This document shows, piece by piece, positions 713 through 57,685 of a stretch of DNA of 58,692 bases (position 1 is its first letter; each line of letters begins with the position of its first letter). Made by a program: the position numbers and the translations under genes. The DNA comes from Girardia tigrina (lineage: Eukaryota), in contig MQRK01218208.1 of assembly GCA_001938485.1 (NCBI GenBank), forward strand, positions 1 to 58,692, given 5' to 3'. Under the pieces are notes generated by a model, which saw nothing but the letters and a program-made list of their open reading frames with translations, was not told the DNA's origin and made no database searches.

Positions 713-3700
713 GTAATTGATTATCAATATTTATTTTTTTTTAAATTTCGTATCGCTCCTGATTCAACTGAATGAATTTTTCATCAAAATTTTCTTATTC
801 AAATTATTTATATTAAAAATAAATTTTTTCTTTAAAAAATATTTTGATATATTAAAAAAATATTTATATTTTGGCTATCGACCTCAATTTAATATGAAAA
901 AATCTTAATATCATATTCGAAATAGACTCCAAATGTAAAATTTTTATTCATAGTTATTAAAACTTATTTCATGGTGGAAAGCTGATTTGCAAACGTATGT
1001 ATTTTTAAAACATTTTTTCATATTAAATACATAATTGTTCATATTAAATTGATATTTTTTTTCATATTTAAATACATTTTATAGCAATTAATATTTTTGC
1101 ATAATAAATCGATATTTTTCATATTAACTAAATATTTTTCATATCAAATATGCAGAATTTTTAACATAAATATCATAATTGAATTCAAAAATATTTTCAA
1201 AGGTCGTGCTTTTGGCAATTACACAATTTTTCCTCGTATGCTGATAATTTTTTTAAATATTGTAATATTTTTATATTTGCTTGGGCCCGTACGGAAATGT
1301 ACCCATTCAAAATAACATATACTCCAAAACTCGAATATTTTTTTTAGAAAAGTTTTTTCTTTCAAAAAATATAGGTGAAGAATTATTCGAGGTATTATCA
1401 AAGATTAAACTAATTAACGTATCGCTCTTGATTAAACTGAACGATTTTTCCATAAGTTTTTTTTATATTCAAGAAATTATGATTTTAAAAATAAAATTTT
1501 TCTTTAAAAATATTTTTTAAAATTAAAAAAAATTATATTTAGGTTATCGATCCAAATTGGATGGAGAGTGTAAATCTATGGAAAAATTAAACTTAAGCCT
1601 CGTATTTGACATTCGTTTTATACATTATTTTCTTTTAAGATGATTAAATGTATCTTGGGCTTGGGTTTACTTTGTACCGCTACTTGTTTTATGAATTTTT
1701 ATTCAATATAAGTATCATACTTACCTCTTCCAGAATATTAACCCAAAATAGCCTTCCAGAACTCAGAAAAAATAAGATTAAATATATAAATTATATATCT
1801 GTGAAATAATAAATGGTTAAATGGTTTAATTTTTAGGAATAAAATAAAATAAAATAATTTGTCATGAATTAGACTTTTAGGGAATAAAATGAAATAAGTT
1901 TTTTTTAAATTAGGATCATTAGACATAAAAGGAAATGAATTTCTATAAGTTAGGAATTATTAGACATAAAATCAAATCAAATTTTATCTTGCAGATAGCT
2001 TTTTCATAACTAAATGTTTCTTCAAAATTGAAATCTTTAAGCCATGTTATATGCCTGTGGTTTATACGATCTCTCACCTTTTCAATCTCCGATCGGCCAA
2101 GATCATATCATGATTTTTTCAATCATTTCGGGAGTATTAACAACATCACAATTTGAATGCAAACATTTATTGACAACACAAACAGATTCTTCACAACAAT
2201 TTTCAGAGGTCATCTTTCTTTGATTGATATAATTTTTTGTTAATTTATTCAAATCTAAAAAACAATGAATGGGAAATTTTAATATTAAATTTTAATTTCT
2301 CATAATTTTATTAAATAAAAGGACATTACGTAATTTTTAAATAAACATTAATTTTTAAAATATATTAAATTTAATAAGTTAAAATCGTTTACTAAAAATA
2401 TTTTTAAAATTCATAATTATCAAACTTTAATTAATTAGTACTTAAAATTAATATCATTAAATTAATTTCATTAGATTCAAATAATCAATCAATAAACATA
2501 TCAATCCCATCTGAGTAGGAGAGTCACAAATCTAAACAGCATACAAACAACAAACTTACAACATTCCAAATTATCCCTCACAGGGATTATTGACCCCGAT
2601 TTGACACCCAGAACGTTTAGCATCACTCGTGCTTATTTGGCGAAAATTAATTTATAAAGCTTATTCTTGGTTTTAGTGATGGATTTTTTCCTGAAAAAAT
2701 AAGGCTCTGTGAGCACAAAAAATGTCTTTATTGACTTAAATTAAGTGGGAAACCAAGTAATAATCTTCAGAGTAATCTAAAATAGAAATACATTCCTCAG
2801 TTAAACTATTACCCCAAATGATCTTTACAGTTTATCTATTAGAACAAAAGTCAAGGTAGCTATCATACGCGTCTTAAGATAAAAATTTGTCTTTATTTTA
2901 CCGACTGATTAGGTCTTTGCCTGAGACTTCACGTATTATATTTTGAATCAAATAGAATGAACGTCCCTGTAAATTAGCATTAGGAAAAGCAGAAGGGAAA
3001 GCATTTATCATTGCTACCTCAAAGTCTAATAATATCACTACAGGGTGAAATGTAGACCGAAATTCGATAATCATTTCATTTTTTTTAACAAAATCCTAAT
3101 TTATAAAATTTATGTCAATTTATCTTTAAAACCACCATTTCGTACATTTTCGGCTCATATCCACATTCCAACGATCTCGTACTGTATCTGAATTACTAAT
3201 ACGATCAATCACTTCACGAATAAAATTAATATACTCATCATTCACCGGTTCATTCCATTGTAATCCATTACACGACCGTTTTATGTAGCTACATGCTACA
3301 TAAATAAAAAAATTATAATTTCTCATAATAATCCATTACACGACCGTTTTATGTAGCTACATGCTACACGAAACCAATTTCCAATCGGGTAATGGACCAA
3401 TTAAATTTCCACAAATCGAATATACGCCTATTCTGGTGATCATATCTGGGATATTCAAGGGCAAGGGAGTACTCCTCGACCAATTTAATACTCCATCACA
3501 TTGAGATAATTGAAGATCAAGAACTCTCGCTCCGTTTAGTTCCTCTGGATCTTTACATTGTAAACCGTACTTCGATAAATGATTCCGTACTTCTTCTACG
3601 CTCACTATGTCTTCATTTAAAAATGATATCATCTATATAATGCCGAGTTCCACGGCAAAATTTTTAATCAATAGACAAAACCTTTCCTAAAATCATGGAC

Positions 3701-12500: not shown

Positions 12501-15500
12501 CGCGAACCGGTTTTGATGTATNNNNNNNNNNNNNNNNNNNNNNNNNNNNNNNNNNNNNNNNNNNNNNNNNNNNNNNNNNNNNNNNNNNNNNNNNNNNNNN
12601 NNNNNNNNNNNNNNNNNNNNNNNNNNNNNNNNNNNNNNNNNNNNNNNNNNNNNNNNNNNNNNNNNNNNNNNNNNNNNNNNNNNNNNNNNNNNNNNNNNNN
12701 NNNNNNNNNNNNNNNNNNNNNNNNNNNNNNNNNNNNNNNNNNNNNNNNNNNNNNNNNNNNNNNNNNNNNNNNNNNNNNNNNNNNNNNNNNNNNNNNNNNN
12801 NNNNNNNNNNNNNNNNNNNNNNNNNNNNNNNNNNNNNNNNNNNNNNNNNNNNNNNNNNNNNNNNNNNNNNNNNNNNNNNNNNNNNNNNNNNNNNNNNNNN
12901 NNNNNNNNNNNNNNNNNNNNNNNNNNNNNNNNNNNNNNNNNNNNNNNNNNNNNNNNNNNNNNNNNNNNNNNNNNNNNNNNNNNNNNNNNNNNNNNNNNNN
13001 NNNNNNNNNNNNNNNNNNNNNNNNNNNNNNNNNNNNNNNNNNNNNNNNNNNNNNNNNNNNNNNNNNNNNNNNNNNNNNNNNNNNNNNNNNNNNNNNNNNN
13101 NNNNNNNNNNNNNNNNNNNNNNNNNNNNNNNNNNNNNNNNNNNNNNNNNNNNNNNNNNNNNNNNNNNNNNNNNNNNNNNNNNNNNNNNNNNNNNNNNNNN
13201 NNNNNNNNNNNNNNNNNNNNNNNNNNNNNNNNNNNNNNNNNNNNNNNNNNNNNNNNNNNNNNNNNNNNNNNNNNNNNNNNNNNNNNNNNNNNNNNNNNNN
13301 NNNNNNNNNNNNNNNNNNNNNNNNNNNNNNNNNNNNNNNNNNNNNNNNNNNNNNNNNNNTATGAGACACTACATAATTACTCAATATTATGACATCATTG
13401 CCTAACCATTGACCTATTTTTTGCATTGTGCACAATCCGTTTTCTGAAATCCGCATTTCATACTTGTACACCTAATAAATAATTAGTTATACATCGAATT
13501 ACTTTCTGGGTATATTTTGATTTTCATTGAATAAAAAGCCAGAATCAAATTAACCTAAAAATGTGAGTTACGTTCGGTCATAAGCCTCAAACACTAATAA
13601 AAGTATATAAATCTTAACTTTAATTTACAATGGGCTATTATGGTATTAGACGCGAGTATCTACAGTTCAATTAACTTTATAATTTATTTTTGGAAAATAT
13701 TAAATAGTTTGAATGTTTTTGATAATAATGGGTCATTATTAGGAAGTGATTATTTGATGTGTACGATTGAAAACGGAGGTACATTGGGAAGCACGAAAGG
13801 TGTCAATTTACCAGGAGCCAAAGTTGATTTACCGGCAGTTTCAGAAAAAGATAAAGAAGATTTACTTTTTGGAGTTGAACAGAATGTAATAATTTACATT
13901 TGTAATAAATAGAAACGGACAATAATTGATAACTTCATTTAATTGTGTCATCTAGGTTGATATCGTATTTGCATCCTTCATTCGGTCGGCAGATGCGATC
14001 CGAGAGATTCGAGAGATTCTCGGAGAAAAAGGCAAACATATTCTCATTATATCGAAAATTGAAAACCTCGAAGGAGTTCATAGGTTGGTTTAATATCGGT
14101 TTAATTGATTTTGGCTTGTTAGAATTATTTCATATTTAAATATTTATTTTTTCTTTTATTCGATTTGTTGTATTTATGATTTATATTATATTACTTTGTA
14201 TTATTATTTGTTTTTTAATATTATTCATTTTATTTTGCCATTTTATACATCTTGGTTATTATTTTTTGAGTTTAATCTCGAGAAATAAAATAATCAAAAT
14301 GGTAACTTTCATTAAAATAAAAATTCTAATGGAATTTAGTAATTAATAAATATCAAAATTAAAATTAATTTGTGTAATTTTCATGAAAATTTGAACCAAA
14401 AGAAAAGTAATGCAGAATAGAATTATTAAGAACACCAACATGGGTTTTCAAACTTTTATTTTCAATACACTCAGAATTGTCTTTTAGACAATTCTCAGTA
14501 AAACTCTCGTCATTCGACATCGTTCTAAATTGATAAATTTTTATTAATGTTTGTTCGAACAATTATTCGAACAAATTTTTCATTATATTCTGATTTTATT
14601 TTTACAGTTCAAATTTGGTAATTTTAGTCTCAATTTTATTTACATATTAATTTTATTTAAAAATTATTTTATTGAAAGAAGGTACATTTATTTAATTCAA
14701 AACTTAGTTAAAACTATTTATTTTATTTAAATTTTAATATGAAAATTTGAAAAGATTTAATATTTTTAATGTTTTTAAATATCTTATGTTGTACTTGAAA
14801 ATGTAAATTATGTTCGAATAATTATCTATCGTGAACATCCAAAATATCAATTTTCCATCTGGGTGGGAGTAACACATTTCCAAATACTAAACTCAACATA
14901 CAAAATTCAACAAACCAATTTCAACATACCAAATTTAAAATATTCCTCACAAGAATGAAATAATAAACCCAATTGAAATATTAAAAAATACAAGCATAAA
15001 TAAAAATAAAAATAAAAAAGTAATAAAAATTAATAAAACATGTTAAATAAATTGTAAACTTTATAAGTAATAATTATATCCAAAAACTTTGATCGGTTCA
15101 CATGACCATTTACTATTGGCGTCGTCGGTTTTATACTGATTTTTCTCATAAAGAGTGCTTTAAAACTTTTTCGAAATTACAAACGTTCTATTTTTATAAA
15201 TAATACAATAATACAGGGTGTCCAAAAAGTGTATACACTTTTTTAGTAATAATAAAATATTTATATAAGACAAAAAGAATTTATCATGCAGAATAAAGAT
15301 TTAATAATTTTAGATGTTAGAATGGGAGATCGTTCTTGATCAGGCACCGTTGACCTAACCAAAATAGAATGATTGATATTTTTTGGCTTGGTTTTGTACA
15401 CATTGTTTTTTAATTATCTTCCCCCAAATAGGATGTGGTACTGTGGCAAAAACATTGTTTTGTTTATTCATCATTTTGAGTAGTATGTTTGTATAAGTCC

Positions 15501-24300: not shown

Positions 24301-27251
24301 TTGTACAATGTACACGCTTCAGGATTTCATTTTCGATCATCAGCAATTATAGATTAATATGTAAGATAATAAAATGTGAATTGATGGGAGAGTTTTTACA
24401 TCCGGGACAATTAAATTTATAAACTAGATTATGGTTCACAACCAGATAAATGATAAAGGTGCATAAATTATACAATGCATACAGCTGGTCTTCCACTCCG
24501 CCATGTATTATCAATGATTGAGATCGTACAGCACAGGCTCGTAAATGTTCTCGATTCATTATTGAGTCCCTTGATTTCTAATGAATTTGAGGTCAAGGAT
24601 AGCATTGATTTCATTTTGGATCAGATACATAAAGGTGATTCTAAATGTATGATCTCATTTGATGCCCCAAGTTTATTTTACAATTGTATCCATCGACGAA
24701 ATTATTGGTCTATGTGAAATATTATGGGATAATAATTATGACTCTGAATGAAATAATGTTCAAAGATGAAATAAAAACACTTCTTAAATTTTCGGCCAAA
24801 ATGTACTATTCTTTTGAACGATGAATATAATATTCAGAAAGATCGAGTTGCAATGAATTTCTAATTAGCACCAATCTTGGCATCAATTTTTATGAAGTCT
24901 CTTGAGGATAAAATTAGTCCATACTCTGAGGGGAAACCTGTGATCTACAAAAGATGTGTAGATGATATCTTTCTTGTTTGCAGAAACAAATCCCTGATAG
25001 AACCATTCTTAAAATTCTCGAATGGCCTTCAACCTAATTTTAAATTCACTACAAAATTGAAAGTAAATAACAAACTTCCTTTTCTTGACATTCTTGTCCC
25101 TAGTATGAATGGGAAATATCGAACTGAATTATACAGAAAGGCAACAAATAACACAAAATCTCAAAGCTTTTACGAGGAAAAATACAAAGAAGGTATTCTT
25201 AAAGAGTTTGGAGTTTGTCTTTCACTCCTTTTCAATAAATCAAAAACGATATCTGAATTGGAAGCTAATCTAGTTTATAAATTTAATTGCCACGGATGTA
25301 AAAATCGTACACTATAGAGACAAAACATCATCTCAAAACTCGAATTAGTTAGCTGTTAGGAATTCAGAAATGTTATTAAAAGTTTTTGAAAGAATGTAAA
25401 ATTAAATATACCAAGTAAAATATAGAAAATTTATAAAATTTGTAATTATTTGATGATTGTAAAAGAAATTTTAAAATTGTTAAAATTTAACGAAACATAA
25501 ATATTTGTTAATGCTCGTGTAATTTAAAATTATAAAATTTGATTAAAGATTTTGAATTATTAGAGAATAATAGAGATTTTTTAAAATTATAAAATTTGAT
25601 TAAAGATTTTGAATTATTAGAGAATAATAGAGATTTTTTAAAATTATAAAATTTCACGGAATGATTAAGTATTTCATAATTTTAACAAAATAAAAAATTC
25701 ATATTAAAGGTAAAATTTATAAAAGAAAAATAAAATCAAGTATTATTATATGTATTTTTATTTATACCGGTTTAATATTTATAAAACGAATTATTTCTAA
25801 ATAATAAGTTTGTTTTAATATTAGTGTTAATCGTTTTTTTTGAAAAAAATTGTAATGTAATACAATTTGGATTTGATGTCGAAATTAACTTTTAATAATA
25901 AGTCTGAGGATGTTTCAAAAACATTTAACATTATAATACTAATATTAACGAAAATTACACTAAAAGACATAAATAACAATATATTTTGTCATATATTTTA
26001 TTGTCATATATTAAAATCGGTCTTGATAACATATCTGAGTAAACGCAAAAAAGTTTCTCTCAAAACAGTTAGGGCCATATTATAAATGTTGTCTTAGATT
26101 TTAGTAATTTGATTTTTCCACAAATTTTTGAGATGTCCTTTGTATATTGCGTCTAAATGAGTTGATACGATTGTGTCGCTTATTTGTCAAATCGATTTAC
26201 TCCTTTTCTTTCATTGTTAATATCGTATTGAAAATTACAACCTTTACAATAATTTAAGGTATATTTTAAATAATATAATTTAGTAAAAATGTATATGATA
26301 TTTAACCATATAAGTTGATTTATATATTTTAAAATTAATATCTTCAAAATTTTTTTTTCAAAAATAAAATAAAATTTGTTAGGTTTGATGAAATTCTCAA
26401 TGCTAGCGACGGAATAATGGTTGCCAGAGGGGATTTAGGAATAGAAATACCCCCAGAAAAAGTGTTTTTAGCCCAAAAAATGATGATTGGTCGATGTAAC
26501 AGAGCTGGTAAGCCAGTCATTTGTGCTACACAGATGCTGGAGTCCATGATTAATAAACCAAGACCAACTAAGGCCGAAATAAGTGATGTAGCAAATGCTG
26601 TATTGGACGGCGCAGATTGTGTCATGCTATCAGGAGAAACGGCAAAAGGTCTTTATCCTCTAGAAGTTGTTCAAGTTATGCACAGTATTTGTCGAGAAGC
26701 GGAAAATGTAGTTTTTCAAAGTAGATTTTTTGAAGCAATAAAGCACACAATTGACGGGCCGACTGATCAAACTCATACGACTGCTGTTGCGGCTGTGGAA
26801 GCAGCACAGCGTTGTCATGCAGCAATAATCATAGTCATTACAACAACTGGTCGTTCTGCACATTTAATTGCCAAATATCGCCCTACATGTCCCATTTTAA
26901 CAGTTACACGACATCCAATTACTGCTCGACAATCTCATCTTTGGAGAGGTTTACATCCTATTTATTATACCGGTACTTTTGTTTTATAAATTTATGGTTG
27001 ATGAAAGGGTTTTAGAACAACGATTACCAGATTGGACTGAGGATATGGATCGAAGAATTCATTATTCTTTCATATATGCTTTTCGAAGAGGCTTCCTAAA
27101 AATGCATGACTTTGTGGTCATTGTAACTGGTTGGAAAGCTGGAGCCGGTTCTACGAATACTTTGCGAATTGTTAGAATCGAAGAAAATGAGCTCGAGTCT
27201 GGAGTTAGACAGATTGTTAGCGTTCCAATTATATCTGAATTCGAAGATTAA
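550..27251 (+). CDS. Pyk: Pyruvate kinase gene, 6 exons: join(550..712,7666..8067,13743..13885,13956..14083,26383..26972,27016..27251); 1662 nt, 553 aa
   Basis: Splicing at GT-AG sites gives one uninterrupted frame with PK motifs: [10 protein letters not shown]|[102 protein letters not shown]. Confidence 0.96.
749..1552 (+). repeat. Diverged ~135-bp direct repeat pair (~749-885 and ~1418-1552) in intron 1
   Basis: cgtatcgctcctgattcaactgaa...ggctatcga versus cgtatcgctcttgattaaactgaa...ggttatcga. Confidence 0.7.
2040..2660 (-). mobile_element. Degenerate mariner transposase fragment split by a solo LTR
   Basis: Removing the LTR gives [13 protein letters not shown](T)[20 protein letters not shown], the mariner HTH region. 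Confidence 0.7.
2135..2582 (-). mobile_element. Solo LTR (448 bp), TG...TA family, same subfamily as 37464-37913
   Basis: Near-identical reverse complement of 37464-37913; 5-bp TSD GGGAG/GGGAT (1 mismatch). Confidence 0.9.
3126..5400 (-). mobile_element. Decayed LTR retrotransposon gag-pol (zinc knuckles, aspartic protease, RT)
   Basis: CFSCG knuckles, LIDSGSD protease, MDYRELN / [11 protein letters not shown] / [12 protein letters not shown] / YIDD RT motifs; many stops and frameshifts; internal duplications at ~3262/3328 and ~4336/4536. Confidence 0.85.
5400..7180 (-). mobile_element. hAT transposon relic (ZNF862/Tip100-like transposase) with one TIR
   Basis: [41 protein letters not shown] motifs; terminal CAAGGTTCCCTCTAAG ending at 7180. 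Confidence 0.8.
7190..7301. repeat. GACTC/GAGTC-rich subterminal-type repeat, probably a DNA transposon or MITE end
   Basis: Many GACTC/GAGTC units in about 110 bp. Confidence 0.35.
7666..8067 (+). CDS. Pyk: Pyruvate kinase exon 2
   Basis: Acceptor AG 7664-7665; (G)PACKSV...RLNFSHG...[10 protein letters not shown]...[12 protein letters not shown]; donor GTATGA at 8068. Confidence 0.95.
8730..9420 (-). mobile_element. hAT-superfamily-related (hATm-like) transposase C-terminal fragment
   Basis: CQHHVLD (CxxH), [22 protein letters not shown] motifs in two frameshifted ORFs. Confidence 0.6.
10347..10990 (-). mobile_element. hAT 3' end relic
   Basis: TAGGGTGTTC TIR at 10347, TACCGGTA subterminal repeats (two ~70-bp copies), dimerization motif [31 protein letters not shown] at ~10630-10735. 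Confidence 0.75.
12013..12163. mobile_element. 151-bp hAT-type MITE
   Basis: TIRs CAGTGGTTTCCAAC / GTTGGAAACCACTG; 8-bp TSD TATTAAAT (right copy split by the mariner). Confidence 0.85.
12169..13475 (-). mobile_element. Mariner element (Mos1/mauritiana-like TIRs), ~1.3 kb, middle in an N gap
   Basis: 28-bp TIRs TTAGGTGTACAAGTAT..AAT.CGGATT, TA TSD; [10 protein letters not shown] and [15 protein letters not shown]-terminus. Confidence 0.92.
13743..13885 (+). CDS. Pyk: Pyruvate kinase exon 3
   Basis: Acceptor TTAG; (G)[24 protein letters not shown]...FGVEQN; donor GTAATA at 13886. Confidence 0.95.
13956..14083 (+). CDS. Pyk: Pyruvate kinase exon 4
   Basis: Follows a 70-bp intron; [13 protein letters not shown]...[12 protein letters not shown](R); donor GTTGGT at 14084 (phase 2). 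Confidence 0.95.
14424..14951 (-). mobile_element. Solo LTR (528 bp), TG...TA family
   Basis: TGTGAGGAATA...GTTCTTAATA on the minus strand; perfect 5-bp TSD AGAAT (14419-14423, 14952-14956). Confidence 0.9.
15214..15540 (-). mobile_element. Highly decayed Tc1-like end
   Basis: TA+CAGGGTGTCCAAAAAGT TIR-like start; residual IWG...VYKTKP-like codons. Confidence 0.4.
15694..17520 (-). mobile_element. hAT relic (3' TIR plus dimerization domain) hosting a mariner
   Basis: TAGGGATTGC TIR at 15694 with GAAATTCG repeats; [37 protein letters not shown] at ~17095-17230. Confidence 0.75.
15799..16952 (-). mobile_element. Mariner element, 5' part of the transposase deleted, middle in a gap
   Basis: TIRs TTAGGTGTATAACTTAGTTTTTTG, TA TSD; [21 protein letters not shown] and [17 protein letters not shown]. 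Confidence 0.92.
17523..20076 (-). mobile_element. hAT Charlie/SPIN-like (GTF2IRD2/EPM2AIP1-type) element, internally deleted
   Basis: 16-bp TIRs CAGGGGTCTCCAAACT; [35 protein letters not shown] motifs; flanks GTCTAGAG/ATGTATGT do not form a TSD. Confidence 0.85.
18506..19932 (-). mobile_element. Tc1/mariner rosa (DD41D)-like element with long TIRs, nested in the hAT; transposase pseudogene 18634-19710
   Basis: ~95-bp inverted repeats 18506-18601 / 19749-19843; outer end GTCACCCTG+TA at 19932; [30 protein letters not shown] motifs. Confidence 0.88.
23085..23476. mobile_element. Fold-back / MITE-like palindromic element
   Basis: Outer ~55-bp inverted arms (...AACAACCACGTTTTTCAAGCA) and inner ~29-bp arms (TAACCAAAAACGTGGGGC at ~23200 and ~23380). 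Confidence 0.7.
24393..25370 (+). mobile_element. Penelope-like retroelement relic (RT + GIY-YIG endonuclease)
   Basis: [53 protein letters not shown]; inverted copy of the endonuclease piece at 24393-24431. Confidence 0.85.
25523..25655 (+). repeat. Tandem repeat, ~57-bp unit, just over two copies
   Basis: tttaaaattataaaatttgattaaagattttgaattattagagaataatagagattt repeated. Confidence 0.85.
26383..26972 (+). CDS. Pyk: Pyruvate kinase exon 5
   Basis: Acceptor TTAG; (R)[19 protein letters not shown]...[12 protein letters not shown]; donor GTACTT at 26973. Confidence 0.95.
27016..27251 (+). CDS. Pyk: Pyruvate kinase exon 6 (last)
   Basis: Follows a 43-bp intron; (E)[14 protein letters not shown]...[16 protein letters not shown]...FED*. 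Confidence 0.93.
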
Positions 27252-30165: not shown

Positions 30166-30400
30166 TGTGAGGAATATTTTAAATTGTTTGAATGTGTAAA
30201 TGTATTGATGCTGTATGTATTTGAGTATGTTGAATTTAGAATAGTGATTCTCCCACCCAGATGGAAATTGGTATTTTTATTAAATTTAAAGGATTGGCTA
30301 TTCGAACATAATTAAAATAATCATTTGATAAGTTCATATTTTTAATTTCACAATTAAAATTAAGTTTAATATTTTTTTAGTAAAATTTAAATTAAATTTA
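30166..30400 (+). mobile_element. 3'-truncated LTR, TG...TA family
   Basis: TGTGAGGAATATTTTAAATT start, CCCACCCAGATGG and TATTCGAACATA motifs shared with 14424-14951. Confidence 0.75.
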
Positions 30401-30403
30401 TTT

Positions 30404-31284
30404 TCAATAATTTGATGACATTTTTATTATTTTTGGATTTATTATTTGAATTATTGGATATGCCTTTCTAGTTTGGTACTTTTTTGGCTTTAAAATATCC
30501 GGTCTTTCTCTAATTTGCATTCCCTGAGCTTCAATAAAGTCTGCTGATTTCAAAAATGCCAAATTGCACTCTTTGTAATTAACATTATACAATAAAACTA
30601 ACTCTCCAGCCTGACAACTTGATTCTCTAAAGTTGCAAAATGGATGTGATTGTAATTTTCCAGTTGCATCGTCAAATATTCCATCAAATATTCTTAATTC
30701 TGTTTGATACTCTTCCGAAATCATAATTTTTTTGTATAATTTTTCCTCCCAATTTTACAGGTTCACCTTCACAATTACCATTTACATCTATAACTCCCTT
30801 TCTAATAACTGATTCTCTCATAATTGCTCCTTCTTTAGCTGCGAGTTTTAAAGTTTCATCAATTTTTAATTCTTTCGTTTGAAATGCAGCTACACAATTT
30901 TCAGGTAATATCTTCACAGGTCTGGGAATTGCATTTATCTTGATAATAGAAGTATGACTCCATTTTCCACAATGATAAATATAAGTTGCTCTTTTCACAA
31001 TACATTCTGGTACTTTAACTCTACGAAATCCAGATTCCTAATATAGATGATACAAAACATTTGTTTTTTCTTGAATGTGTAACGGCTAAGCTTCTGAAAA
31101 TTCTGCTACATCTAGAAGAGAATAAATTTTTCCGACTTCAGTCTGAGTACGCTACAAGAGCTTGTGTTTGATTCATTCCAGGAATAATAAATAAGATTAA
31201 AGTAAACCACCACAATTTAGAAGTTTTTTCTTTGTTAAATACATGATTTGTCTTATCATTATTAATATTATCGATACTTTTCAT
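30404..31284 (-). pseudogene. Chuvirus-type / Anakin env-like glycoprotein, N-terminal portion, decayed
   Basis: Manual translation through stops: hydrophobic LWWFTLILFIIPG...ALVAY, then YSLLDVAE, LY*ESGFRRVKVPECIVKRATYIYHCGKWSHTS, GVIDVNGNCEG, HPFCNFRESSC; fits the L.GYDC / SLLDV.EC / C......YYCGMHSH.S / G.C.G pattern. Confidence 0.7.
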
Positions 31285-33900: not shown

Positions 33901-34387
33901 TGACGAGATACACAGTTTAGTTGGAACAATGCGTCAAAATACACCAGAAAATATGTCTCGTTATAGTTCAATCTTTTTCTTAAAAGAAAAGGAAAGCATG
34001 CCCAGTCTTAAAAATTACAAATGCAAACCAAATAAAGCTGTTGCTCTTCTCGGTTGTTTTTTTTTGAAATTAAAAGAAGTTAAAATCCAAAAACTTTTTT
34101 TTGACGGTTTCGCTGTTCTAGTGTTAAAGATACAACGCGAAATATCGGATATACTTTACAATAAATGACTAAAGGTCATTAAGACTATAGTACGGAAAAT
34201 AATGGTTAGTTAGGATTGATTAAGAATAATAATGAAATTATCTTCATAGAAAGGATAACGACAACACGAGAGATATTAAAATTAAAAAACAAACTATTGA
34301 ATTGTTTGTGTAGTTTTGGTCTTTCAAATATATCTTATTCGTGTTATACCGCTTGTTAATAAAACTAAATAACAAATCATAAAACAG

Positions 34388-34879
34388 AATTTTGTATGTT
34401 GATTTTAGTATTTGGAAATGTGTTTCTTCAATCAGATGGAAAATTGATATTTTGGATGTTCGCGACGAATAGTTATTCGAGCATAGTTTGCATTTTAAAT
34501 TACAACATATGATATTCAAAAACTTTTAAAATATTAAATCGTTTCAAATTTTAATATTAAAAATTTTTATAAAGTAAATAAATTTAAACTTATTTTTAAA
34601 TTGATTAAATATATGTTTTTCTTTAAATAAAATCATTTTTAAAATTAAATCCATTTTAGATAAAATTATTAACAAAATTATAAAAGTAGAATTTTAAAAA
34701 TAAAATCTGAAAATAATTTAAAATGAAATTTGTTTGAATAATTATTTATTAACAAAACATAACAAAAAATTATCAATTAAACGAGATGTCAAATTATGAA
34801 AATTTTGCTGAGAATCCCAAAGACAATCCAAATTGTGATGAAAATAAATGTGTGAAAACACATATTGGTGTTCTTAATA
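34388..34879 (+). mobile_element. 5'-truncated LTR, TG...TA family (close to 14424-14951)
   Basis: gtatttggaaatgtgtt..cagatggaaaattgatattttggatgttc and terminal GGTGTTCTTAATA. Confidence 0.8.
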
Positions 34880-34996: not shown

Positions 34997-37900
34997 TGTA
35001 AGGATGATTTATAAATTATGATTGTTGTTGATTTAATTCGTGTAACTTTGGTATGATGTTCGGATGTGTTTATGACTCTCTCTGTGTATATATTAATTGT
35101 ATTTTTATTTAATGTATATGTGAGGGATAATTTGAAATGTTGTAAGTTTGTTGTTTGTATGCTGTTTAGATTTGTGACTCTCCTACTCAGATGGGATTGA
35201 TATGTTATTTGATTGATTATTTGAATCTAATATAATTAATTTAATGATATTAATTTTAAGTACTAATTAATTAAAGTTTGATAATTATATAATATCATAA
35301 TTATAATAAAGCATACTATCAAGTTGAACTTAAATCAAGTTGAATCAAAGATAAAAACGGCATTCTCGACAAAGAATTGTCAATATTGTTTTAAAAGAAT
35401 GCCTTTCGGAAGAGCGGTCGCTTCGGCTACCTTTCAAGAACAAATGGTAAAAATTCTTGTGGAATTGAACTGGATGGAAGCAGTCGTATACCTACATGAT
35501 ATCTTGATATTTTCTAAAGATAAGAACGGACATCTACAAAGAATATAGAATGTGTTTCAAAAAATCAAAGAATCAGGTTTGAGGATAAATCCAGAGAAAT
35601 GTCAACTTCTAGTAGAAAAGACCAAGTTTATGGGCTACGTAATAAGTAAAGATGGTATAGAAACTGATATAACAAAGATTAATGCGATTAACAAGTTTCA
35701 AAACCCATAATGTATTAAACATCTAAGGAGTTTCTTGGGTTTGACAAATTATTACAGAAAATTCATAAAAGATTATACAAGATATTCGAAAGTTTTAGAA
35801 GGTATGTGTGGTAAAAACAAGGATAAGAAAATAATATAGACAAAAGAATGTGACGAAGCTTTTCAGAGATTAAAAGAAAGAATGGTTCAAACTCCAGTCT
35901 TGGCGTATCCAGACTTCGATAAAGAATTTATATTGGATACAGATGCAAGTTTCGATACGATTGGAGCAGTACTGTCACAAAAAGATTCGAGTGGAAGAGA
36001 AAGAGTTATTGCATATGGTTCTCATAAGATGAATAAACATGAACTTGGTTATTGCATTACCAGAAAAGAATTACTAGCGATATATTATTTCACTCAGCAT
36101 TTTAAGCATTTCTTATATGGGAAAAGATTCTTGTTGAGAACAGACCACAAAGCTATTACGTTTATTATGACCACAAAGAACCCAATAACACCGCAATTTC
36201 AAACATGGATAAATTTTCTCAGCGGTCTTGATATGAGAATGGAATACAGGAAAGGTGAAAGACACTCAAATGCAGATGCTATGTCGAGAAACTCTTGTGA
36301 ATTATGTAGTCAATGTCAAACAACACATGAAGAAGCAAAAAAATGAAAGATTAAAACTCGAATTCTAGCGATACACGAAGAACCAAATAGTTTCAAATGG
36401 CAGAATGATAATGAAGAAATCGAACAAATCAAGAAAGATTTGAAACAAGGAATAACAAATAAATGGAAACTGAAAGATGATATTGTAGTAACGGAAAATA
36501 ATAAGTACTGGATCCCGAGAACAAATAGAACCGATTTTATTGAAGATATGCATAAGATGTTATGTCATGCTGAGAGTAAAAAGGTTTTTAACTACCTCAG
36601 AGATGATTTTGATATGGAAAANNNGAGAGAAAAGATAAAAGAAGTTGTTCAAAGTTGCATAAATTGTCAAAAGCGAAAAACACTAACTGCGAAAACAAAA
36701 GAAAGACATATTAAGTAATTTGCAGATGAACCTTTTCAGAAGATATATACCGACTTTTGTGGCCCATTCAAGAGAAATGTTAATGGATACCAGTATATTT
36801 TGGCAATAATTGATCAATTTAGCCGATATATTAGCTTGAACTCAGTTGCTCACCGAGACGAGAGAACACTACGGAAAATATTGCTGGATAGATGGATATA
36901 TAAATATGGATCACCTAAAGAAATCCATGTGGATAGAGGCAAAACATTTGAATCAGAACTATTTAAAGAAACACTGAAGAAGTTTAAGATAGAAGTATTT
37001 AATTCAAGCCTGTATCACCACAATACCAATGAAATTATAGAACGACAATTTAGAACAATTAGAGATGCTCTTAATATCAGAATAAAGGATGGAACGCATA
37101 GAGATTGGACGGAAGTATTGTCAGAAATAGAATTTATGATGAATAGTACCATTCAAGCTACGACAGGTATCTCACCAGCAGAAATAATATATGGAAGGAA
37201 ATTAAGACATTGGTTGAAAAATAAAGAAGATAAAGGAAACCAAATGGGAAAAGAAGGAAAAGCTCCAGAAATGAGAAGAATTTTCAAAGTTGGAAACCAG
37301 GTATTGATAAAGATAGAAAATGCATCAAAAGAAGACGACCGATATATTGGCCCTGCAATGATAATAAGACGGAGACATGTAAGAAGTTACGAATTGCAAC
37401 TCGACAATGGTAAAATATTAATAAGAAATGTAGAATGGCTAAAGCCATTTAAATCGAGGGGGATGTGAGGAATAATTGTGAATGTTGTAAGTTTGTTGTT
37501 TGTATGCTGTTTAGATTTGTGACTCTCCTACTCAGATGGGATTGATATGTTATTTGATTGATTATTTGAATCTAACGAAATTAATTTAATGATATTAATT
37601 TTAAGTACTAATTAATTAAAGTTTGATAATTATGAATTTTATTAATATTTTCAGTAAACGATTTTAACTTATTAAATTTAATATATTTTAAAAATTAATG
37701 TTTATTTAAAAAATTACATAATGTCTTTTTATCCAATAAAATTATGAGAAATTAAAATGTAATATTAAAATTTCCCATTCGTTGATTGTTTCATATTTGA
37801 ATATGTAATCAAAAACTATATCAATCAAAGAAAGATGACCTCTGAAAATTGTTGTGAAGAATCTGTTTGTGTTGTAAATAAATGTTTGCATTCAAATTGT

Positions 37901-40900
37901 GATGTTGTTAATAGTATATTTTATAATAAATATGTGTTGTTTAAATATTTCAAATTAACTTGAAAAAGAAGCACAAAATTTGAAATTGAAAAACTGTGGA
38001 TTATAAAATAAATTTTTTTGTTAATGAAAACGTTTTTTGATTTCGGATTTATTAATAAAACCGGGAAGGAAAATAAATGTCAATTTTCGAAAATTAACAT
38101 GGCGACCACGACCATTGCGACACCGAATATTGAGGGTCCCGAAAAATTCGATGGAACCGAATCGAAACTTGAGTAATTTATAAAGAACTTCGACCGTTAT
38201 ACTCAAATTATTGGCCTTGCAGAAGAAAGGAAGGTAATTGTTGTAGCTGCATATTTAACGTCCACAGCAGTTTTAAAATATGATGAAGCACCCGGAATTA
38301 CATTCGATGAAAAATTAAAAGCAGCATTTACGAAACCAAAAACGATATTAGATATAATGAATGAACTTGTTAATCTCAGATTGGAATCTCAGGATCCGGA
38401 TATTGTCTTCAAAAAAGCAGATGAACTTATTGAAAAGCTCTGTGAAAAGAAAATTGGAAAGAAAGAATTATCAAATTTAGTATATATAAATGTTGTCAAT
38501 GACTATGAAGTTAAAAGAGAACTGGTGTTGAGAGGCACATCTGATACCAGAGATATCAAATATATCGTAAAAAGAGTTCATAAATTAAAGAAAATGAGCG
38601 AAGAAACGGTTGCAGCATATACTACAAATGATAACAAATGGAAAACTGTAAAGAAAAAAAGTATCAGCCAAGAGAGGAAACTCGTCAAGTCAGGAGAGAT
38701 ATGGTACAAGAAAGTAAAAAACAGATACATCTAACACATTTCATTGTGCGTTGTTGGGCATGTCATAAAGAAGGACATGTAAGAAGAGAGTGTCCAGAAG
38801 TCAAATGTTTATTTTGTCATAAAAAGGACACTATAAGAGTCAATGTTATGAGAATCCGCATAGATTTGAGGAAAAAGCAGAAAACAGAAGAAGAAAAGAA
38901 AGAATCGGGAATAAATTTAATTCATGCAGATCCCAAAGTAGAGGACCAAAGAAAAAAGGTACTCAGCGGCAGTTATAAATGAAAACGAGTATGATGGCCC
39001 GAACGAGATGCAAGAAATGAACAAAATGTATGGAAAAACAGAATTTTTCAACAGAAACTACCAAAATTCAAAATGTGAGTTTGAGTGTATAGAAAAATGC
39101 TATGACTATGTGGAGCATTTTGATAAGAATGTAATATTTGATTTAAGTAGAGAAATTAAAACAAAAACACAAAGAAAGAATTTTAATCCCTTAGCAATAA
39201 AAGTAATGACAATAAAGACCTATTGAAAATAGATGTATTGAAAATAACTTGTTTGAATATAAGATACGATAAACTAAATGAACGACCAAATATTACGTTC
39301 CAAATAAATGATAGATATTGATTGTGTTTTAAATACTGGCGCCAGGGTAAATTTAATTAAGGCCGACTTATTAAAAAGTATGACAGATGTGAAATTAAAA
39401 GATTCAACGAAACACATATATTGTGCAAACGACTCGGAATTGATAACTTATCGTACTGTTAAATTAATCATCAATATAAAAGAAGTAGAAACAAATGAGT
39501 TTTATGTTGTTAAAGAAATTGTTCCGGAGATGATTGCCTGGGTTGACTTTCTTAAGAAATTCAACATACGACTACCAAAAGTTATGCAAGGATAACGACA
39601 GATTTTGCACATCAAAGACAACAATTTAGACAAAGAAAGAATGATTCGAAGGAAATAATTGTATAAAAGTATAAATGAAAGAGAATTATGGGATATTTTA
39701 ATTGAATACAAGTCCATTTTTATGGCAAAGAAATGGGATGTTGGAAAGACCGATTACACGAAACATCTGATTCAAACACAAGGTGATCCAATACTTGTGA
39801 AGCCGTACAAAAAGTTGAAACACTTTGAAGAAAAATTGGAAGAAATCCTCAGAAATCTGGAAGAAAATGATATAATAGAGAAACGCATATCACCTTGGAA
39901 TTTTCCTTTAGTGTGCGTATGGAAGAAAGAGAAACAAGAAATCAGATTGTGTGTGGATTTTCGTCAGCTTAACAAAGTAACAATAAGACCAGTATTTCCA
40001 ATGCCAAATATCGATGATATGCTGAATACATTAAATGGAGCACAATATTTCAGTACCATTGACCTAAGAAACGCTTACTATCAAGTAGAACTAGAAGAAG
40101 AATCAAAAGAAAAACAGCATTTTCGACAAAAAGTGGACAATATTGCTTTAAAAGAATGCCATTTGGAATTGCGGCAGCACCAGCAACATTTCAGGAACTT
40201 ATGGTAAAAGTTCTTGGAAACTTAAATTGGAAGGACTCAGTGGTATATTTAGATGACATATTGATATTTTCACGAAATAAAGAAGACCATATTCATCGTA
40301 TAAAAAATGTTTTTCAAAGAATAAAAGAATCAGGCTTCAAAATCAATCCTGAAAAGTGTCAATTTTTAGTGCGACAGACAAAATTCTTAGGTTACATTAT
40401 TAGTTCAGAAGGTATTCAGACGGATGAAATAAGATAGAAGCCATTAAACAATTTCAAATTCCATCTTGCATCCATTTACGAAGTTTCTTAGGCCTGATCA
40501 ATTATAATCGAAAGTTTATCAAGGACTACGCAAGATACTAAAAAGTATTGGAAGGAATGTGTGGTAAAAATAAGAACAAAAAATTAATATGGTTGGAGGA
40601 ATGTAATGAAGCGTTTAATAAATTGAAAGGAATGATGATGACAACACCAATTTTGGAATATCCAGATTTTAATGAAAACTTTATTTTGGACACCGATGCC
40701 AGTTTTGACACTATTGGCACAGTTTTATCTCAAATAGATGCTCATGGTAGAGAAGAGGTCATTTCTTATGGATCCAATAAGATGAACAAGCATGAGCTTG
40801 GTTATTGTATCACCAGGAAGGAACTGTTAGCAATTTATTATTTTACCCAACACTTCAAGCATTTCCTTTACGGGAAAAAATTCTTACTAAGAACAGACCA

Positions 40901-48500: not shown

Positions 48501-50580
48501 AAATTCTTTTTCACAAATCCATAGACCTTATTCATCGTTCGTACATCCAGCTCGCATCCGAATCCGTGGGAATTATCTTCTAAGATCATTGGCACTCGGC
48601 TCCCACCAACTCCCCAATTGGCGGAGCCCAGTCGTTTAGGTACGTCTTGTCGTTTTTTTCTTCATTATCATCAAATGTGCGTTCTTCATCTTCGTTCATC
48701 GTGTTGATTTTAAATCTTCGATCATTGTTCTGCATTCTCGATCTTCCATTGTCGTAATTATAATTCTGTCTGCTAGAGTTCACTAAACATGCCGCTGCTA
48801 GATGCCCATTCCGGCCACATTTTTCACAGCGTATCTCTGGACATTGAGTTCGCCTATGTCCCTTTTTTCCGCACAAGAAATGAACTAATGGCTGTTTGTT
48901 AGGACAGTTTCGACTGATGTGCCCAGTCTCTTTACAATTACAACACTGCACATGTCTTCTTTGTTGGCAGTTTCGGCTGAAATGTCCTGGTTGATGACAA
49001 GTATAACATTTGGACTCTGATTTGGAGGTTGATTCCTCTCTTGGGAGTTGTTTTCTCGGCTGACTCTGATTTACCCATTTTTCAGTTACCTCAGGAGCCC
49101 TGTTGTTTTGAACAACCTCTCGATAACTTCGGACAGCATTGATCCTGCTCTTCTTTTCGTGGTTTATTTCGTCTACGAGTGCAACGAACTCAGATATTTC
49201 CTTGACACTCTTTAATTTCCGTAATTTAATTTCACGAACAACATCTTCATCATCAATGCAATGAATTAACATTTGAGCTTTTAACTCTTCTTCCTCGAGT
49301 CTATGCGACAACGCCTTTTTTACCAACCAATCTACCTTTTTGAAAAAGGTCTGTGCGTTATCAGCACCTTTGCGATAACTCAACAGTTTTTCCCAATCCG
49401 TCGCGGCTGCTCTCGGCTTCTCAAACGCTAGTCTTAGCCGATCCTCAAAACTATCAGCTTTACCAGCTGTGTTCTCATATGCTTCCAAGAGATCTTCATG
49501 TATCATGGAGTAAATACATGTTTGCCATTTCTTTTAATTAATTTCCGCTGCTTCAAAATATCTTCTGCAGCGAGAAATAAATTTCTCAAGGTCTTCTCCG
49601 ATCTGGAACATGTCGGGAATCAGTCGGTTCGTGATTGAATCCGCTAGCGCNNNNNNNNNNNNNNNNNNNNNNNNNNNNNNNNNNNNNNNNNNNNNNNNNN
49701 NNNNNNNNNNNNNNNNNNNNNNNNNNNNNNNNNNNNNNNNNNNNNNNNNNNNNNNNNNNNNNNNTTTTTATTTTCTTTTTTTTTATTTCTATTTTCTATT
49801 ATTTTTTTTAATTTCGATTATAATTCGAAATTTTTAAAAACCAAAATTCTTATTTCTGAAAATTAAAAAATTAACAACAACACTCTCTTACACTGGCCAT
49901 TGTAAGACGCTTTTCTGACGGCATATCCGGTTCTAAAATAAATGCTTCTCGTAGGTTATCATTATGTATGCCATGTACTGCAAATGCTTTAATAATTTCA
50001 TCCATTGCTTCTGGCGTCTTAAAAATTTCGGTAACTAATGATCTTACCCGTAACTCGAAACATTGATATCGTTCATCGTGTCGTTGAGAAACGTTGCTCA
50101 GCTCCTCGACTTTGTCCATGACACTCCTCGGTCTGATAAATGTTGATAGAAACCATCTGGACACTTCTTCGTTCGACAAATCTTTCCGATTTGCACTAAA
50201 TTCGTTCCATAACAGACGGCAGTCCCTTCGTAGAAGCATGTCGAAGGTAAATGACATTTTCATTTGGTTGAATAATGCAAACTCCTTCGTTTCGTCCAGC
50301 CATTTCCCTGCGTTATCCGATTTACTATCAAAAAATGATACCTTCGGTGCCAGTGCTTCTTGAGCAGGAAGTGGTAATTTTGAAAATAATTTTCTTCTCT
50401 CTTCCGCTCTGCTCACTGCGCAAATCACCGGTTCGGTTTCGAGATTTGAGTGGCTGTGGTCACCAGTAAGAACACAATCGAAATCCATCAAGAATAAATA
50501 TATTTAAATTCTAACACAAATAATCAAATATTAAAACAACAACAATAATTGAATATTAAAATAACATTCAATTATCCAAC
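42545..50580 (-). mobile_element. Ty3/Gypsy element C, split by element B: LTR remnant and PBS ~50456-50580, gag 49893-50488 continuing 45420-~44800, protease/RT/RNase H/integrase ~44775-42545
   Basis: PBS TGGTGACCAC; gag frame restored on removing B (KRLTMAS|MLEQL); LWDSGAS, CLDFRPLN, APATFQ, LDTDAS, integrase core truncated. Confidence 0.87.
45421..49892 (-). mobile_element. Ty3/Gypsy element B, structurally full length (~4.5 kb): 230-bp LTRs (45421-45650; 5' LTR ends 49892, partly in gap), gag ~48586-49650, pol ~45647-48595
   Basis: TG...CA LTR, perfect TSD CTGGC (45416-45420, 49893-49897), PPT 45651-45660, several CCHC knuckles, LLDTGA, FILDTDAS, integrase with GPY. Confidence 0.95.
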
Positions 50581-50959
50581 TGTGTTCATTGTATGTTGTT
50601 TTAGAATTATGTTTTTTCCACCCAGATGTAAGATTGATATTTTAAATATTTTAAAACGTCGGATTATTTATTCAATTTTAAAATTTAAATAAAAATTTAA
50701 TTTAAAATTAAATTAATATATCATAAATATAATTTTATAATTAAAATTATTTTGTAATTTGAATTATAAATTATTTTAAAATCAAATTGTAAATAAATTT
50801 TAATTTAAATTTGTTTAAATAATAAGGTGTTTAAAAATCTAATTAAATTTATCAATCAAGAACGATGGCTGGTTACTAGAGGTTTTTGGAGAATTGTCCT
50901 AGTGACAATTCAAATTGTGATATCAATAAATGTTTTAAAAATCCAATGTGTTCTTAATA
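50581..50959 (+). mobile_element. 5'-truncated LTR, TG...TA family
   Basis: CCACCCAGATG motif, GAGAATTGTC..GACAATTC hairpin, AATAAA and terminal TGTGTTCTTAATA. Confidence 0.7.
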
Positions 50960-52471: not shown

Positions 52472-53312
52472 TTCTTCGGCACCTCCCCCCCGGGGGGGTT
52501 GTAACTAGCTACCGCGCACGGTTACCATGGCAACGGTCGCGATCACCTTAGAAACGCTTCTGATTGGTTCCTGGTTCCCTAGCAACGGTCGCGATTAACT
52601 AAAAACACTTCTGATTGGCCCTTGGTACCTTAGCAACGGTCACGGTTACCATGGCAACGTTCACCATAGCAATGGTTCCGGTTCACTTGGAAACGCTTCT
52701 GATTGGTTCCCGGGTCCTTAGCAAAGGTTTCGGCTCCTCGGGTTTGGTAACCAAGGGACGTTTTTCCTTAGCAACGGATACAGTGATCAAAGGTAGTTGT
52801 AACCATGGTAACGGTTCCCATATCCATAGCAACCGTCACCCCGTAACTAAGGACCGTAGAAAAAAGTACTAATCGATCACTGTACAGTGCTCAGAGGTGC
52901 TAAGGAATATTTTGAAAGTGCTAATCGATAGTGTACATTTTGCCGCACATTTCTAATGTGCTAACACAATGCCTTTTAAGTTGCACATGTGCAAAAGTGC
53001 AAAAATCAATACATAAATTTTTTTAAAAGTACTTGGGTAAAAAATTGATATCATGTGTTTGATGCACATTTTGATTCTCTATTTGAATGTGCAATTAAAG
53101 ATTTCATACATTGATTAGTTTTCTCTATAATAAGCATAATGTGCAAATTTGCAAAAAGTGCACATTGATTTTAAAGGTACAAGGAAGCAGAATATCAAAA
53201 AAGTGCTGATGTACTGGAATAGTAACCCGCATACGTACATCCAGATTCCATGTCAACATTTTTGAAAAAGTGCTCAAAAATCTATTTTTTCGTACATATC
53301 TGAAACCCCTAT
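52472..53312 (+). repeat. Left inverted arm (~840 bp)
   Basis: Reverse complement of 57686-58493 with scattered mismatches and one indel; terminal CCCCCCCGGGGGGG palindrome. Confidence 0.92.
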
Positions 53313-53465
53313 ATATATTTTTATATTATATATTTTATATGTTATATTTTATATGTTACATAAAACAAAAGTTGTTTTTTACAAGGTATGAATAAAGATA
53401 GGTATAAGACAAGTATTTTTAACAAACATTTATTAACATATGTACAATATTTACAAGTATATCAT

Positions 53466-53540
53466 TCACAAAAGATAATATCCATGAGCTAATGTACTTA
53501 CTCCATCTGACAAAATATGTCGTTTATCGTCGAAGTAGTC
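53466..53540 (-). pseudogene. Inverted second copy of the pPolB C-terminus (3' UTR continues to ~53369)
   Basis: DYFDDKRHILSDGVSTLAHGYYLL* versus DWFDDKRHILSDGISTLPHGYYLL* at 56120-56194. Confidence 0.9.
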
Positions 53541-53550
53541 TTTTCTTGAA

Positions 53551-56194: not shown

Positions 56195-56344
56195 ATGATA
56201 TACTTGTAAATATTGTACATATGTTAATAAATGTTTGTTGAAAATACTTGTCTTATACCTATCTTTATTCATAAACTTGTAAAAAACAACTTGTAAAAAA
56301 TATATAAAATATATAAAATATAAAATATTCAAGAGCACATTACG

Positions 56345-56480
56345 TTGACATGTTAATATAATGAATGCAATACATTAACATGATGAATGCAATACGTTGA
56401 CATGATGAATTTAATATGTTGACATGATGGATGCAATACGTTGACATGATGGATGCAATAAATTAACATGATAGATGCAT
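56345..56480 (+). repeat. Minisatellite, ~22-bp unit, about 6 copies
   Basis: gttgacatgatg(a/g)atgcaatac repeated. Confidence 0.85.
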
Positions 56481-56579
56481 GGTGATATCTCCTTGGATAC
56501 AGCCATGTTTTGAATGGTTGATATGATAACATAGTATAATATCATAATATAATACATTTATATTATATATTATTCTGGA

Positions 56580-57130
56580 TACATAATGTGCATATGTTCG
56601 AAAAAGCACTACGTATTGATTTTTTCAAAAATCTAAGATGATATTCTGACTATTCATATATAAGTTACTATTCATGTGTTCAAAGAGATTTTTGATATTT
56701 TGCTTACTTCGCCCTTTGCCTAGGCTATATCATATAGGAATTCGACGCCGCTTTACACTATAATACACAACATATCAATAAAGCACTATGTATTGATTTT
56801 TTCAAGAATCTAAGATCATATTCCGACTATTTACCTATAAGTTACTATACATGTGTTCAGGCAGATTTTCGATATTTTGCTTGCTTCGCCCTTTGCCTAG
56901 GCTATACCATATGTATGTTCTGCCTCACTTTACACTATAATACACAACATATCAATAAAGCACTATGTATTGATTTTTTCAAGAATCTAAGATCATATTC
57001 TGACTATTTACCTATGGGTTACTATACATGTATTCAGACAGATTTTCGATATTTTGCTTGCATCGCTATCTATACCCTATGGGCATTCTGCCTCACTGTG
57101 GGCATTCTGCCCCACTTTACACTATATTAT
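56580..57130 (+). repeat. Tandem repeat, ~177-187-bp unit, about 3 copies
   Basis: ctttacactata anchor at 56751, 56928 and 57115; aagcacta.gtattgattttttcaa.aatctaagat repeated. Confidence 0.85.
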
Positions 57131-57401
57131 ATTAAAACATGAATACATTGCACTTTGTACAATAGTGAACTTATTGATTTAACGGCAGTCTAGGCAGCCT
57201 ACCTAGGCTTAGTACAGTATTGATGAGCACGTGTGCAGTATTGATTAGAACATTTATGTAGCACATGTGTAGAATTGATTTTTTACACTTTTTTTTGTGT
57301 AATTTTGATAGTTTTTACATGTTTTCGATGATTTTGAAGGTGTTTTTCATGGTTTTAGATATAGCAGTGATGGTTTCTAAAGTGTTTTCGACTATATATC
57401 C

Positions 57402-57446
<45 letters not shown>

Positions 57447-57685
57447 AACGTTATGTATCATAGTTACGGTAACCATGGTACTTTTGTACATTAGATGATT
57501 ATATAGATGTTTTGTATAGTGCTGATGCATGTTTGAAGTGTAACAGGAATTTTTACGTGTAGATTTTACATGTAAAATAAAATGTTATGTATCTTGGTTA
57601 CGGTAACCACGGTACTTGTGATTATACTTGTGTACATTAGGAGATTCATGAGGTATTGTTTGATGGTAAACAACATACATATATC

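Follow-up and report, generated by a model that had tools for sequence, protein, structure and literature searches.

We analyzed a 58,692-nucleotide (nt) stretch of the Girardia tigrina genome (contig MQRK01218208.1 of assembly GCA_001938485.1, forward strand), referred to as the window, which contains nested, solo and decayed long terminal repeats (LTRs) of Ty3/gypsy retrotransposons. In these elements, gag probably opens at an ATG located 22–32 codons inside the 5′ LTR, giving a Gag protein with a short polar tail that is predicted to be disordered. The phase of the LTR-encoded frame relative to gag, its openness, a second in-frame ATG at the junction with the primer-binding site (PBS) and the identity of the primer can be read directly from the DNA. 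An earlier note on the window had pointed out that divergent LTR copies carry an ATG exactly 3n + 1 nt from the LTR end and had suggested that the LTR encodes a conserved, Cys-rich peptide leading into gag. The distances and peptides proved correct, with the ATGs at 37835, 14520 (minus strand) and 34786 lying 79 nt (3 × 26 + 1), 97 nt (3 × 32 + 1) and 94 nt (3 × 31 + 1) from the LTR end. The copy at 2135–2582 (ATG 2213) differs from the 37835 peptide by one synonymous base, as reported, and the AATAAA signal indeed doubles as Asn-Lys codons in the LTR frame. The notion of a protein-coding LTR end held in that the frame is open and in phase beyond chance, but not in that the peptide is conserved. 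The LTRs and associated features of the window are as follows.

37464..37913, plus strand: family A LTR, 450 nt, TGTGAG..TTAATA, 3′ LTR of a nested element that carries an internal deletion and lies in a family D 5′ LTR
35119..35288, plus strand: 5′ LTR remnant (5′ part only) of the same family A element, 96% identical to 37464–37633
35114–35118 and 37914–37918: target duplication GTATA of the nested family A element
37456..37463, plus strand: polypurine tract preceding the family A 3′ LTR, with the same tract in front of 4 of 30 family A loci
37835..37913, plus strand: LTR-encoded open frame of 26 codons plus 1 nt, which in 5′ LTR copies continues in phase into gag
37877..37882, plus strand: AATAAA poly(A)-type signal, Asn-Lys in the LTR frame, 42 nt past the ATG and 30 nt short of the last LTR base
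2135..2582, minus strand: solo family A LTR, LTR frame from 2213 to 2135, target duplication with one mismatch (ATCCC/CTCCC)
14424..14951, minus strand: solo subfamily B1 LTR, LTR frame from 14520 to 14424 (32 codons plus 1 nt), exact target duplication ATTCT
34387..34879, plus strand: B-type LTR lacking its 5′ end (start approximate), LTR frame 34786–34879 (31 codons plus 1 nt)
38024..38098, plus strand: family D LTR-encoded frame, 25 codons, MKTFFDFG..ENKCQFSKIN, absent from the earlier note
38099..38110, plus strand: junction ATG and tRNA-Arg PBS, read M-A-T-T at the start of the family D gag
50465..50581, minus strand: family C 5′ LTR, 117 nt, AGTT..ACT, with ATG 50488 opening MDFDCVLT and reading through the PBS into gag; no junction ATG
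50589..50959, plus strand: decayed B-type LTR (start approximate) with ATG 50865, stops and a frameshift, in reverse orientation relative to element C, to which it does not belong

The terminal TGTGAG and TTAATA, the target duplications and the purine tract establish 37464–37913 as a real LTR in the orientation that the earlier note had assumed. It belongs to a nest at 34997–38099, in which a family A element (35119–37913) with a 5′ LTR cut after ~170 nt sits inside a family D 5′ LTR. An integrase frame and the purine tract lie upstream of this LTR, and 37835–37913 forms its last 79 nt. A genome-wide search with the family A LTR returned 1856 first-look candidates; 40 of these were scored. The 30 loci fetched start with TGTGAG and end with TTAATA, and 18 have an exact 5-bp target duplication; TGGCGACC comes after the LTR in two of them. 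For B1, exact 5-bp target duplications were found at 19 of 26 loci.

The exact family A LTR end joined to the PBS pattern matches the genome 314 times, and related LTR-end patterns gave 1816, 934 and 490 matches. From the loci examined, rows L203, L253 and L269 were dropped as apparent duplicates, and 14 of 70 B-pattern loci falling into clusters of one or two were also left out. In 30 fetched copies, the family A LTR frame continues as ..CDVVN|MATTAHVTTNIMG.. into gag. The Met following the bar, which the earlier note had missed, is composed of the last A of the LTR and the TG of the PBS and constitutes a second in-frame ATG. Continuity of the LTR ATG with gag through the PBS, proposed earlier as a check, was observed for 5′ LTR copies elsewhere in the genome, in eight of the eight subfamilies looked at. 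The LTR frame comprises 26 codons in A, 32 in B1, B2, B4 and E, 31 in B3, 25 in D and 22 in F. An ATG at the family-specific distance followed by an open frame was present in 98 of 131 5′ LTR copies from seven subfamilies (A, 19/29; B1, 15/16; B2, 8/11; B3, 16/18; B4, 5/8; E, 19/30; D, 16/19). The eighth subfamily scored 12/12, a biased value because its copies were collected by protein search. Among the same 131 copies, frame +2 was open in none and frame +1 in 14, and upstream windows of equal length were mostly closed. A tree built from the gag N-termini of 32 real copies places the 16 rows representing the eight subfamilies to one side of a branch supported at 99/97 (midpoint root; one row chimeric). 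Junctions of 27 sister-family elements were also inspected; 12 have an in-frame upstream ATG, mostly 3–10 codons up, and 15 have none before the first stop. Among relatives within one genome, the LTR-encoded part ranges from 0 to 32 codons.

Indels and composition of the LTR frame point in the same direction. A frame-blind DNA alignment of A, B1–B4 and E contains gaps of 15, 3, 6 and 3 nt, while directly upstream of the LTR frame only two of 17 shared indels are multiples of 3. The 3-nt deletion of the 34786 copy is absent from the other 14 relatives with a locatable LTR end (15 of 25 loci), so that it is probably private and can be rejected as a subfamily trait. Within the frame, 15 of 16 single-copy indels are frame-breaking, as expected after insertion; the two shared frame-breaking indels, one of −1 and one of +1 separated by 7 nt, occur together in three E copies. 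Under a neutral model with ~240–300 substitutions (invariant columns held fixed; six draws, three roots), the probability that the frames of the six alignable subfamilies all stay open was 0.003–0.034; D was left out because it does not align. Relative to stop-free shuffles (p < 0.05 each), third-position T is in excess in seven of eight subfamilies and Cys in six, and the LTR peptides of six are short of F, I, L, Y, W and M. All seven upstream controls lack periodicity.

Related Gag proteins and a structural model provide further support. A search over 1.84 billion representatives returned 351 matches, and in 46 of 50 aligned full-length gags the junction column holds a Met. Of these 46, 40 have a predicted upstream extension of 3–54 residues, ending in Asn in 37 cases, the residue that an LTR ending in AACA or AATA provides. 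After removal of seven rows judged to match families of this genome, 33 of 39 retain an extension, compared with 17–25% by chance. The extensions of these 33 other gags are rich in S, N, E, T and D and contain 0.6% Cys, so that Cys-richness, as suggested earlier, is no general trait. As the records come without DNA context or host, favor upstream ATGs and may include further rows from this genome, the extensions serve as supporting evidence only. P0002 was considered as a copy from another species and rejected, as the family is present in this genome at up to 95% identity. In the folded model of P0001, the LTR-encoded residues (1–26) have no secondary structure, with a predicted local distance difference test score (pLDDT) of ~50, and a confident helical domain begins at around residue 41. 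Its best fold matches are the Arc, Ty3 and copia capsids (best E 2e-3, none at E<=0.001). P0001 matches PF00098, two CCHC sets are invariant or nearly so across the 50 gags, and the nearest Atlas clusters to gag are Retrotrans_gag (score 0.93).

These observations suggest a scheme in which transcription would start slightly upstream of the LTR ATG, near a YCART motif found 12–15 nt before it in A and B1–B4 (five subfamilies) and missing from E and D. We take this motif to resemble an initiator element. Scanning ribosomes would then initiate at the LTR ATG as the first ATG, which would render downstream out-of-frame ATGs harmless. Such ATGs occur between the LTR and junction ATGs in six of seven subfamilies and would be an obstacle to initiation at the junction ATG alone. 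The resulting tail, polar and probably unstructured, would precede the Gag capsid domain, and the junction ATG would act as an internal Met or as a minor start reached by leaky scanning that gives a shorter Gag. Because neither Gag nor Pol would be made past a stop or frameshift in the tail, its phase would be kept strictly and its residues loosely. Selection would accordingly be expected against stops and frameshifts and for polar composition, and hardly on exact residues.

Several results weigh against a gag start in the LTR. The net ratio of nonsynonymous to synonymous substitution (dN/dS) of the LTR frame in the six pairs among B1, B2, B4 and E was 0.72, 0.33, 0.77, 1.33, 0.79 and 0.61 (copies containing N or lacking the family-distance ATG were excluded). 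These values are not below those of the two other LTR frames (0.25–1.00), and the first 45 gag codons gave 0.04–0.17. Divergence by codon position is spread evenly over the LTR frame (0.47/0.47/0.44, as opposed to 0.15/0.17/0.41 in gag). Shared variants within the frame include no stops among 50, but only ~2.7 would be expected, and frame +1 also shows none among 41. The family D frame has neither periodicity nor composition bias relative to stop-free shuffles and does not align with the other subfamilies, which moreover form one clade by shared ancestry and are not eight independent trials. The 15 sister-family junctions without an in-frame upstream ATG indicate that an extension is dispensable elsewhere, and the proportion of 40 in 46 gags is inflated by the upstream-ATG bias of gene callers and the missing DNA context. 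Finally, A at −3 and G at +4 place the junction ATG in a strong context, most E copies have T at position −3 of the LTR ATG, and family E carries an in-frame ATG and stop directly upstream of the LTR ATG. In many of its copies (L217–L244), the stretch directly 5′ of the LTR ATG is a short frame of the MGDIEN-stop type; if transcription begins 5′ of this stretch, it would amount to a small upstream ORF.

For the peptide itself, purifying selection on residues was sought and not detected (dN/dS 0.33–1.33, no third-position excess), and the ‘conserved’ peptide of the earlier note has to be abandoned. A Cys-rich motif would be expected to show dN/dS well below 1 and fixed Cys spacing; neither was found, with spacing varying among subfamilies. 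A dN/dS near 1 together with frame-breaking indels among young copies had been named beforehand as evidence against coding; the former was partly observed, and the frame-breaking indels are single-copy or mutually compensating. From the alignments, selection appears to act hardly at all on the residues of the tail but does appear to act on its frame, and what seems to persist is phase, openness and polar composition.

Among the alternatives, substantial use of both ATGs is partly compatible with initiation in the LTR. It would yield Gag forms of two lengths and distinct roles, and the Cys/His-rich tail would have a function of its own, such as metal binding or lipid attachment; we regard this as unlikely, though as the strongest competitor. 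The junction Met shared by 46 of the 50 aligned gags and its strong context would fit, but since the LTR end and the PBS force this ATG into place, its conservation is uninformative about use. Similarly, the Cys excess in six of eight subfamilies is offset by the variable Cys spacing and the 0.6% Cys of other gags’ extensions. The TGT codons past AATAAA may instead reflect the GT-rich downstream poly(A) element of LTRs described in sections of PMC3601003. A precedent for two close in-frame AUGs with different properties is given by Ty1 p22, as described in excerpts of PMC4551931. Conversely, Gag might be translated from the junction ATG only, with the LTR frame being an untranslated by-product of a triplet-periodic, low-complexity R region (AAT/GAT/TGT runs slipping by three) and RNA signals. 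The near-neutral dN/dS that is not specific to the frame and the 15 of 27 sister-family junctions carrying the junction ATG alone agree with this idea, and triplet-rich DNA could change by units of three without translation. It leaves unexplained, however, the shared phase of ATG, open frame and gag in eight subfamilies, including the non-periodic D. As the LTR frame diverges about like gag third positions, neutral periodicity should have decayed; stops are avoided, and most related gags have in-frame upstream ATGs with unrelated sequence. We therefore consider a junction-only start quite improbable.

The earlier note had also raised the possibility that solo LTRs act as portable promoter-plus-ATG cassettes that would create fusions with neighboring host DNA. 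The ATG and open frame are retained in solo and 3′ copies (for A in 27 of 30 and for B1 in 29 of 30 of the best BLAST hits), and no stop codon closes the LTR frame ahead of the LTR end. Read-through into the flanks, however, is of the length expected by chance in AT-rich DNA, with medians of 19 (A) and 14 (B1) codons and maxima of 88 and 107 in 27 copies each, and the AATAAA inside the frame could end such transcripts. A cassette function thus seems very doubtful. A gag start inside the LTR remains the reading that we favor. A broader proposal would combine several of these ideas: a wide tRNA-Arg-primed gypsy lineage would build one start at the junction and repeatedly gain another in the LTR, making two Gag forms distinguished by a rapidly changing tail from the LTR. 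In this subclade, the tail would have turned Cys/His-rich, with possible binding of metal or membranes, and solo LTRs in their thousands would carry it as a ready first exon. As a whole, we view this as speculative and rather unlikely.

Element C had been cited as direct evidence of read-through. This applies to family C itself, and it was ruled out as proof for the Cys-rich family, from which it differs in LTR and gag. Its LTR (116–119 nt, AGTT..ACT ends, matched in 18 of 20 loci) carries an ATG eight codons before the LTR end in 20 of 20 loci. A junction ATG is absent, and in 11 of 20 copies the frame does not reach another Met until about codon 76. The family C gag thus very probably starts in the LTR as well. 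In the gag N-terminus tree, family C occupies a long separate branch. The decayed version noted at ~50865 was confirmed in its stops and frameshift but reassigned to a B-type LTR on the plus strand, opposite to element C.

The primer could be identified from the 3′ end of the genome’s tRNA-Arg genes, which is the complement of the PBS. The contiguous match is 7–11 nt in most copies and 13–18 nt in eight of 134, and the PBS codons read M-A-T-x. A match of 13–18 nt is the expected outcome if the primer itself was copied, and these copies (L207, L228, L237, L045, L141, L157, L160 and L225) look like cases of a retained primer copy after faulty strand transfer. Five of the eight join unrelated DNA; the other three adjoin gag, and in all three gag is out of frame, suggesting that coding across the PBS is costly.

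Assignment to Ty3/gypsy (Metaviridae) follows from several features. Terminal repeats with target duplication, a PBS and purine tract, and a Gag with capsid fold and CCHC sets are all present. The order reverse transcriptase, RNase H, integrase was pieced together from RNase H (35840–36346) ahead of rve (36719–37468) and the family A 3′ LTR, and from RVT_1 (39659–40207) downstream of the family D gag, rather than from a single intact pol. An integrase preceding reverse transcriptase, as in Ty1/copia (Pseudoviridae), was not found. D and E end in CA; A, B1–B4 and F end in TA instead of the canonical TG..CA. These TA-ending LTRs have normal 5-bp target duplications, and D and E belong to the same clade. 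According to portions of PMC3601003, Zam-type LTRs also lack TG..CA, so that TA ends do not exclude membership in Metaviridae.

Other parts of the window contain further candidate mobile elements. A frame at 30684–31037 (minus strand) matches Pfam Monjiviricetes_fusion (E 1.2e-10) and adjoins an A/B-LTR-related piece at 30225–30407; it is possibly an envelope-like gene captured by a retrotransposon. At 52513–58450, inverted repeats of 554 nt (95%) and 147 nt surround frames that look like DNA polymerase B and endonuclease, a region that we take to resemble Polinton-type elements. The frames at 18506–19843, lying within inverted repeats of 74–78 nt, and at 15875–16749 presumably encode Tc1/mariner-like transposases. 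Several mobile elements lie among the exon-like frames 7632–8087, 13601–13912 and 26339–27251 (plus strand), which we assume to resemble pyruvate kinase.

If gag starts in the LTR, the last 100 LTR bases would combine four roles, namely coding sequence, transcript start, poly(A) signal and integrase end, and the PBS would double as codons. An annotation that begins its search for gag after the PBS would overlook the N-terminus of Gag. The presence of tailed and tailless subfamilies in one genome offers a natural comparison for a coat-protein extension gained from non-coding LTR sequence.

The start codon of GAG in Ty1 of Saccharomyces cerevisiae (Ty1/copia) is located within the LTR. The Girardia elements share with Ty1 an in-frame ATG inside the LTR and a frame open through the PBS into gag, and the basic layout is thus already known. 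They differ in being Ty3/gypsy by pol order and capsid, in using a tRNA-Arg primer rather than initiator tRNA-Met, in their second ATG at the junction and in an LTR part of 0–32 codons; they are Ty1-like in layout but not members. The Ty1 PBS lies inside GAG, as stated in a section of PMC4974528. LTR models of animal Ty3/gypsy elements, as given in parts of Benachenhou et al. 2013 (PMC3601003), share with ours the TGT start, the AATAAA near the 3′ end and the GT-rich stretch following it. The AACA end of families D and E agrees with the general consensus given there, and family C (AGTT..ACT) resembles the Zam type, whereas A, B1–B4 and F deviate by ending in TAATA (TG..TA). A word search of PMC3601003 found no ‘ORF’, ‘ATG’ or ‘start codon’, and the sections consulted of PMC7175516, PMC9503155, PMC11381356 and PMC4202319 leave the position of the gag start with respect to the LTR unstated. 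Full-text literature searches, with most subscription journals and Repbase outside their scope, turned up no paper on animal gypsy elements that describes a gag extension encoded by the LTR or an ATG built at the junction. Two in-frame starts a few codons apart in gag, used by scanning and probably leaky scanning, are described for Ty1 p22 in extracts of PMC4551931. There, the AUGs are internal, and the separate short RNA that carries them encodes a restriction factor, while the Girardia ATGs are predicted starts at the 5′ end of gag. To these systems, the present analysis adds the predicted two-start design, a tail that is present or absent within one genome, and apparent selection on frame rather than residues.

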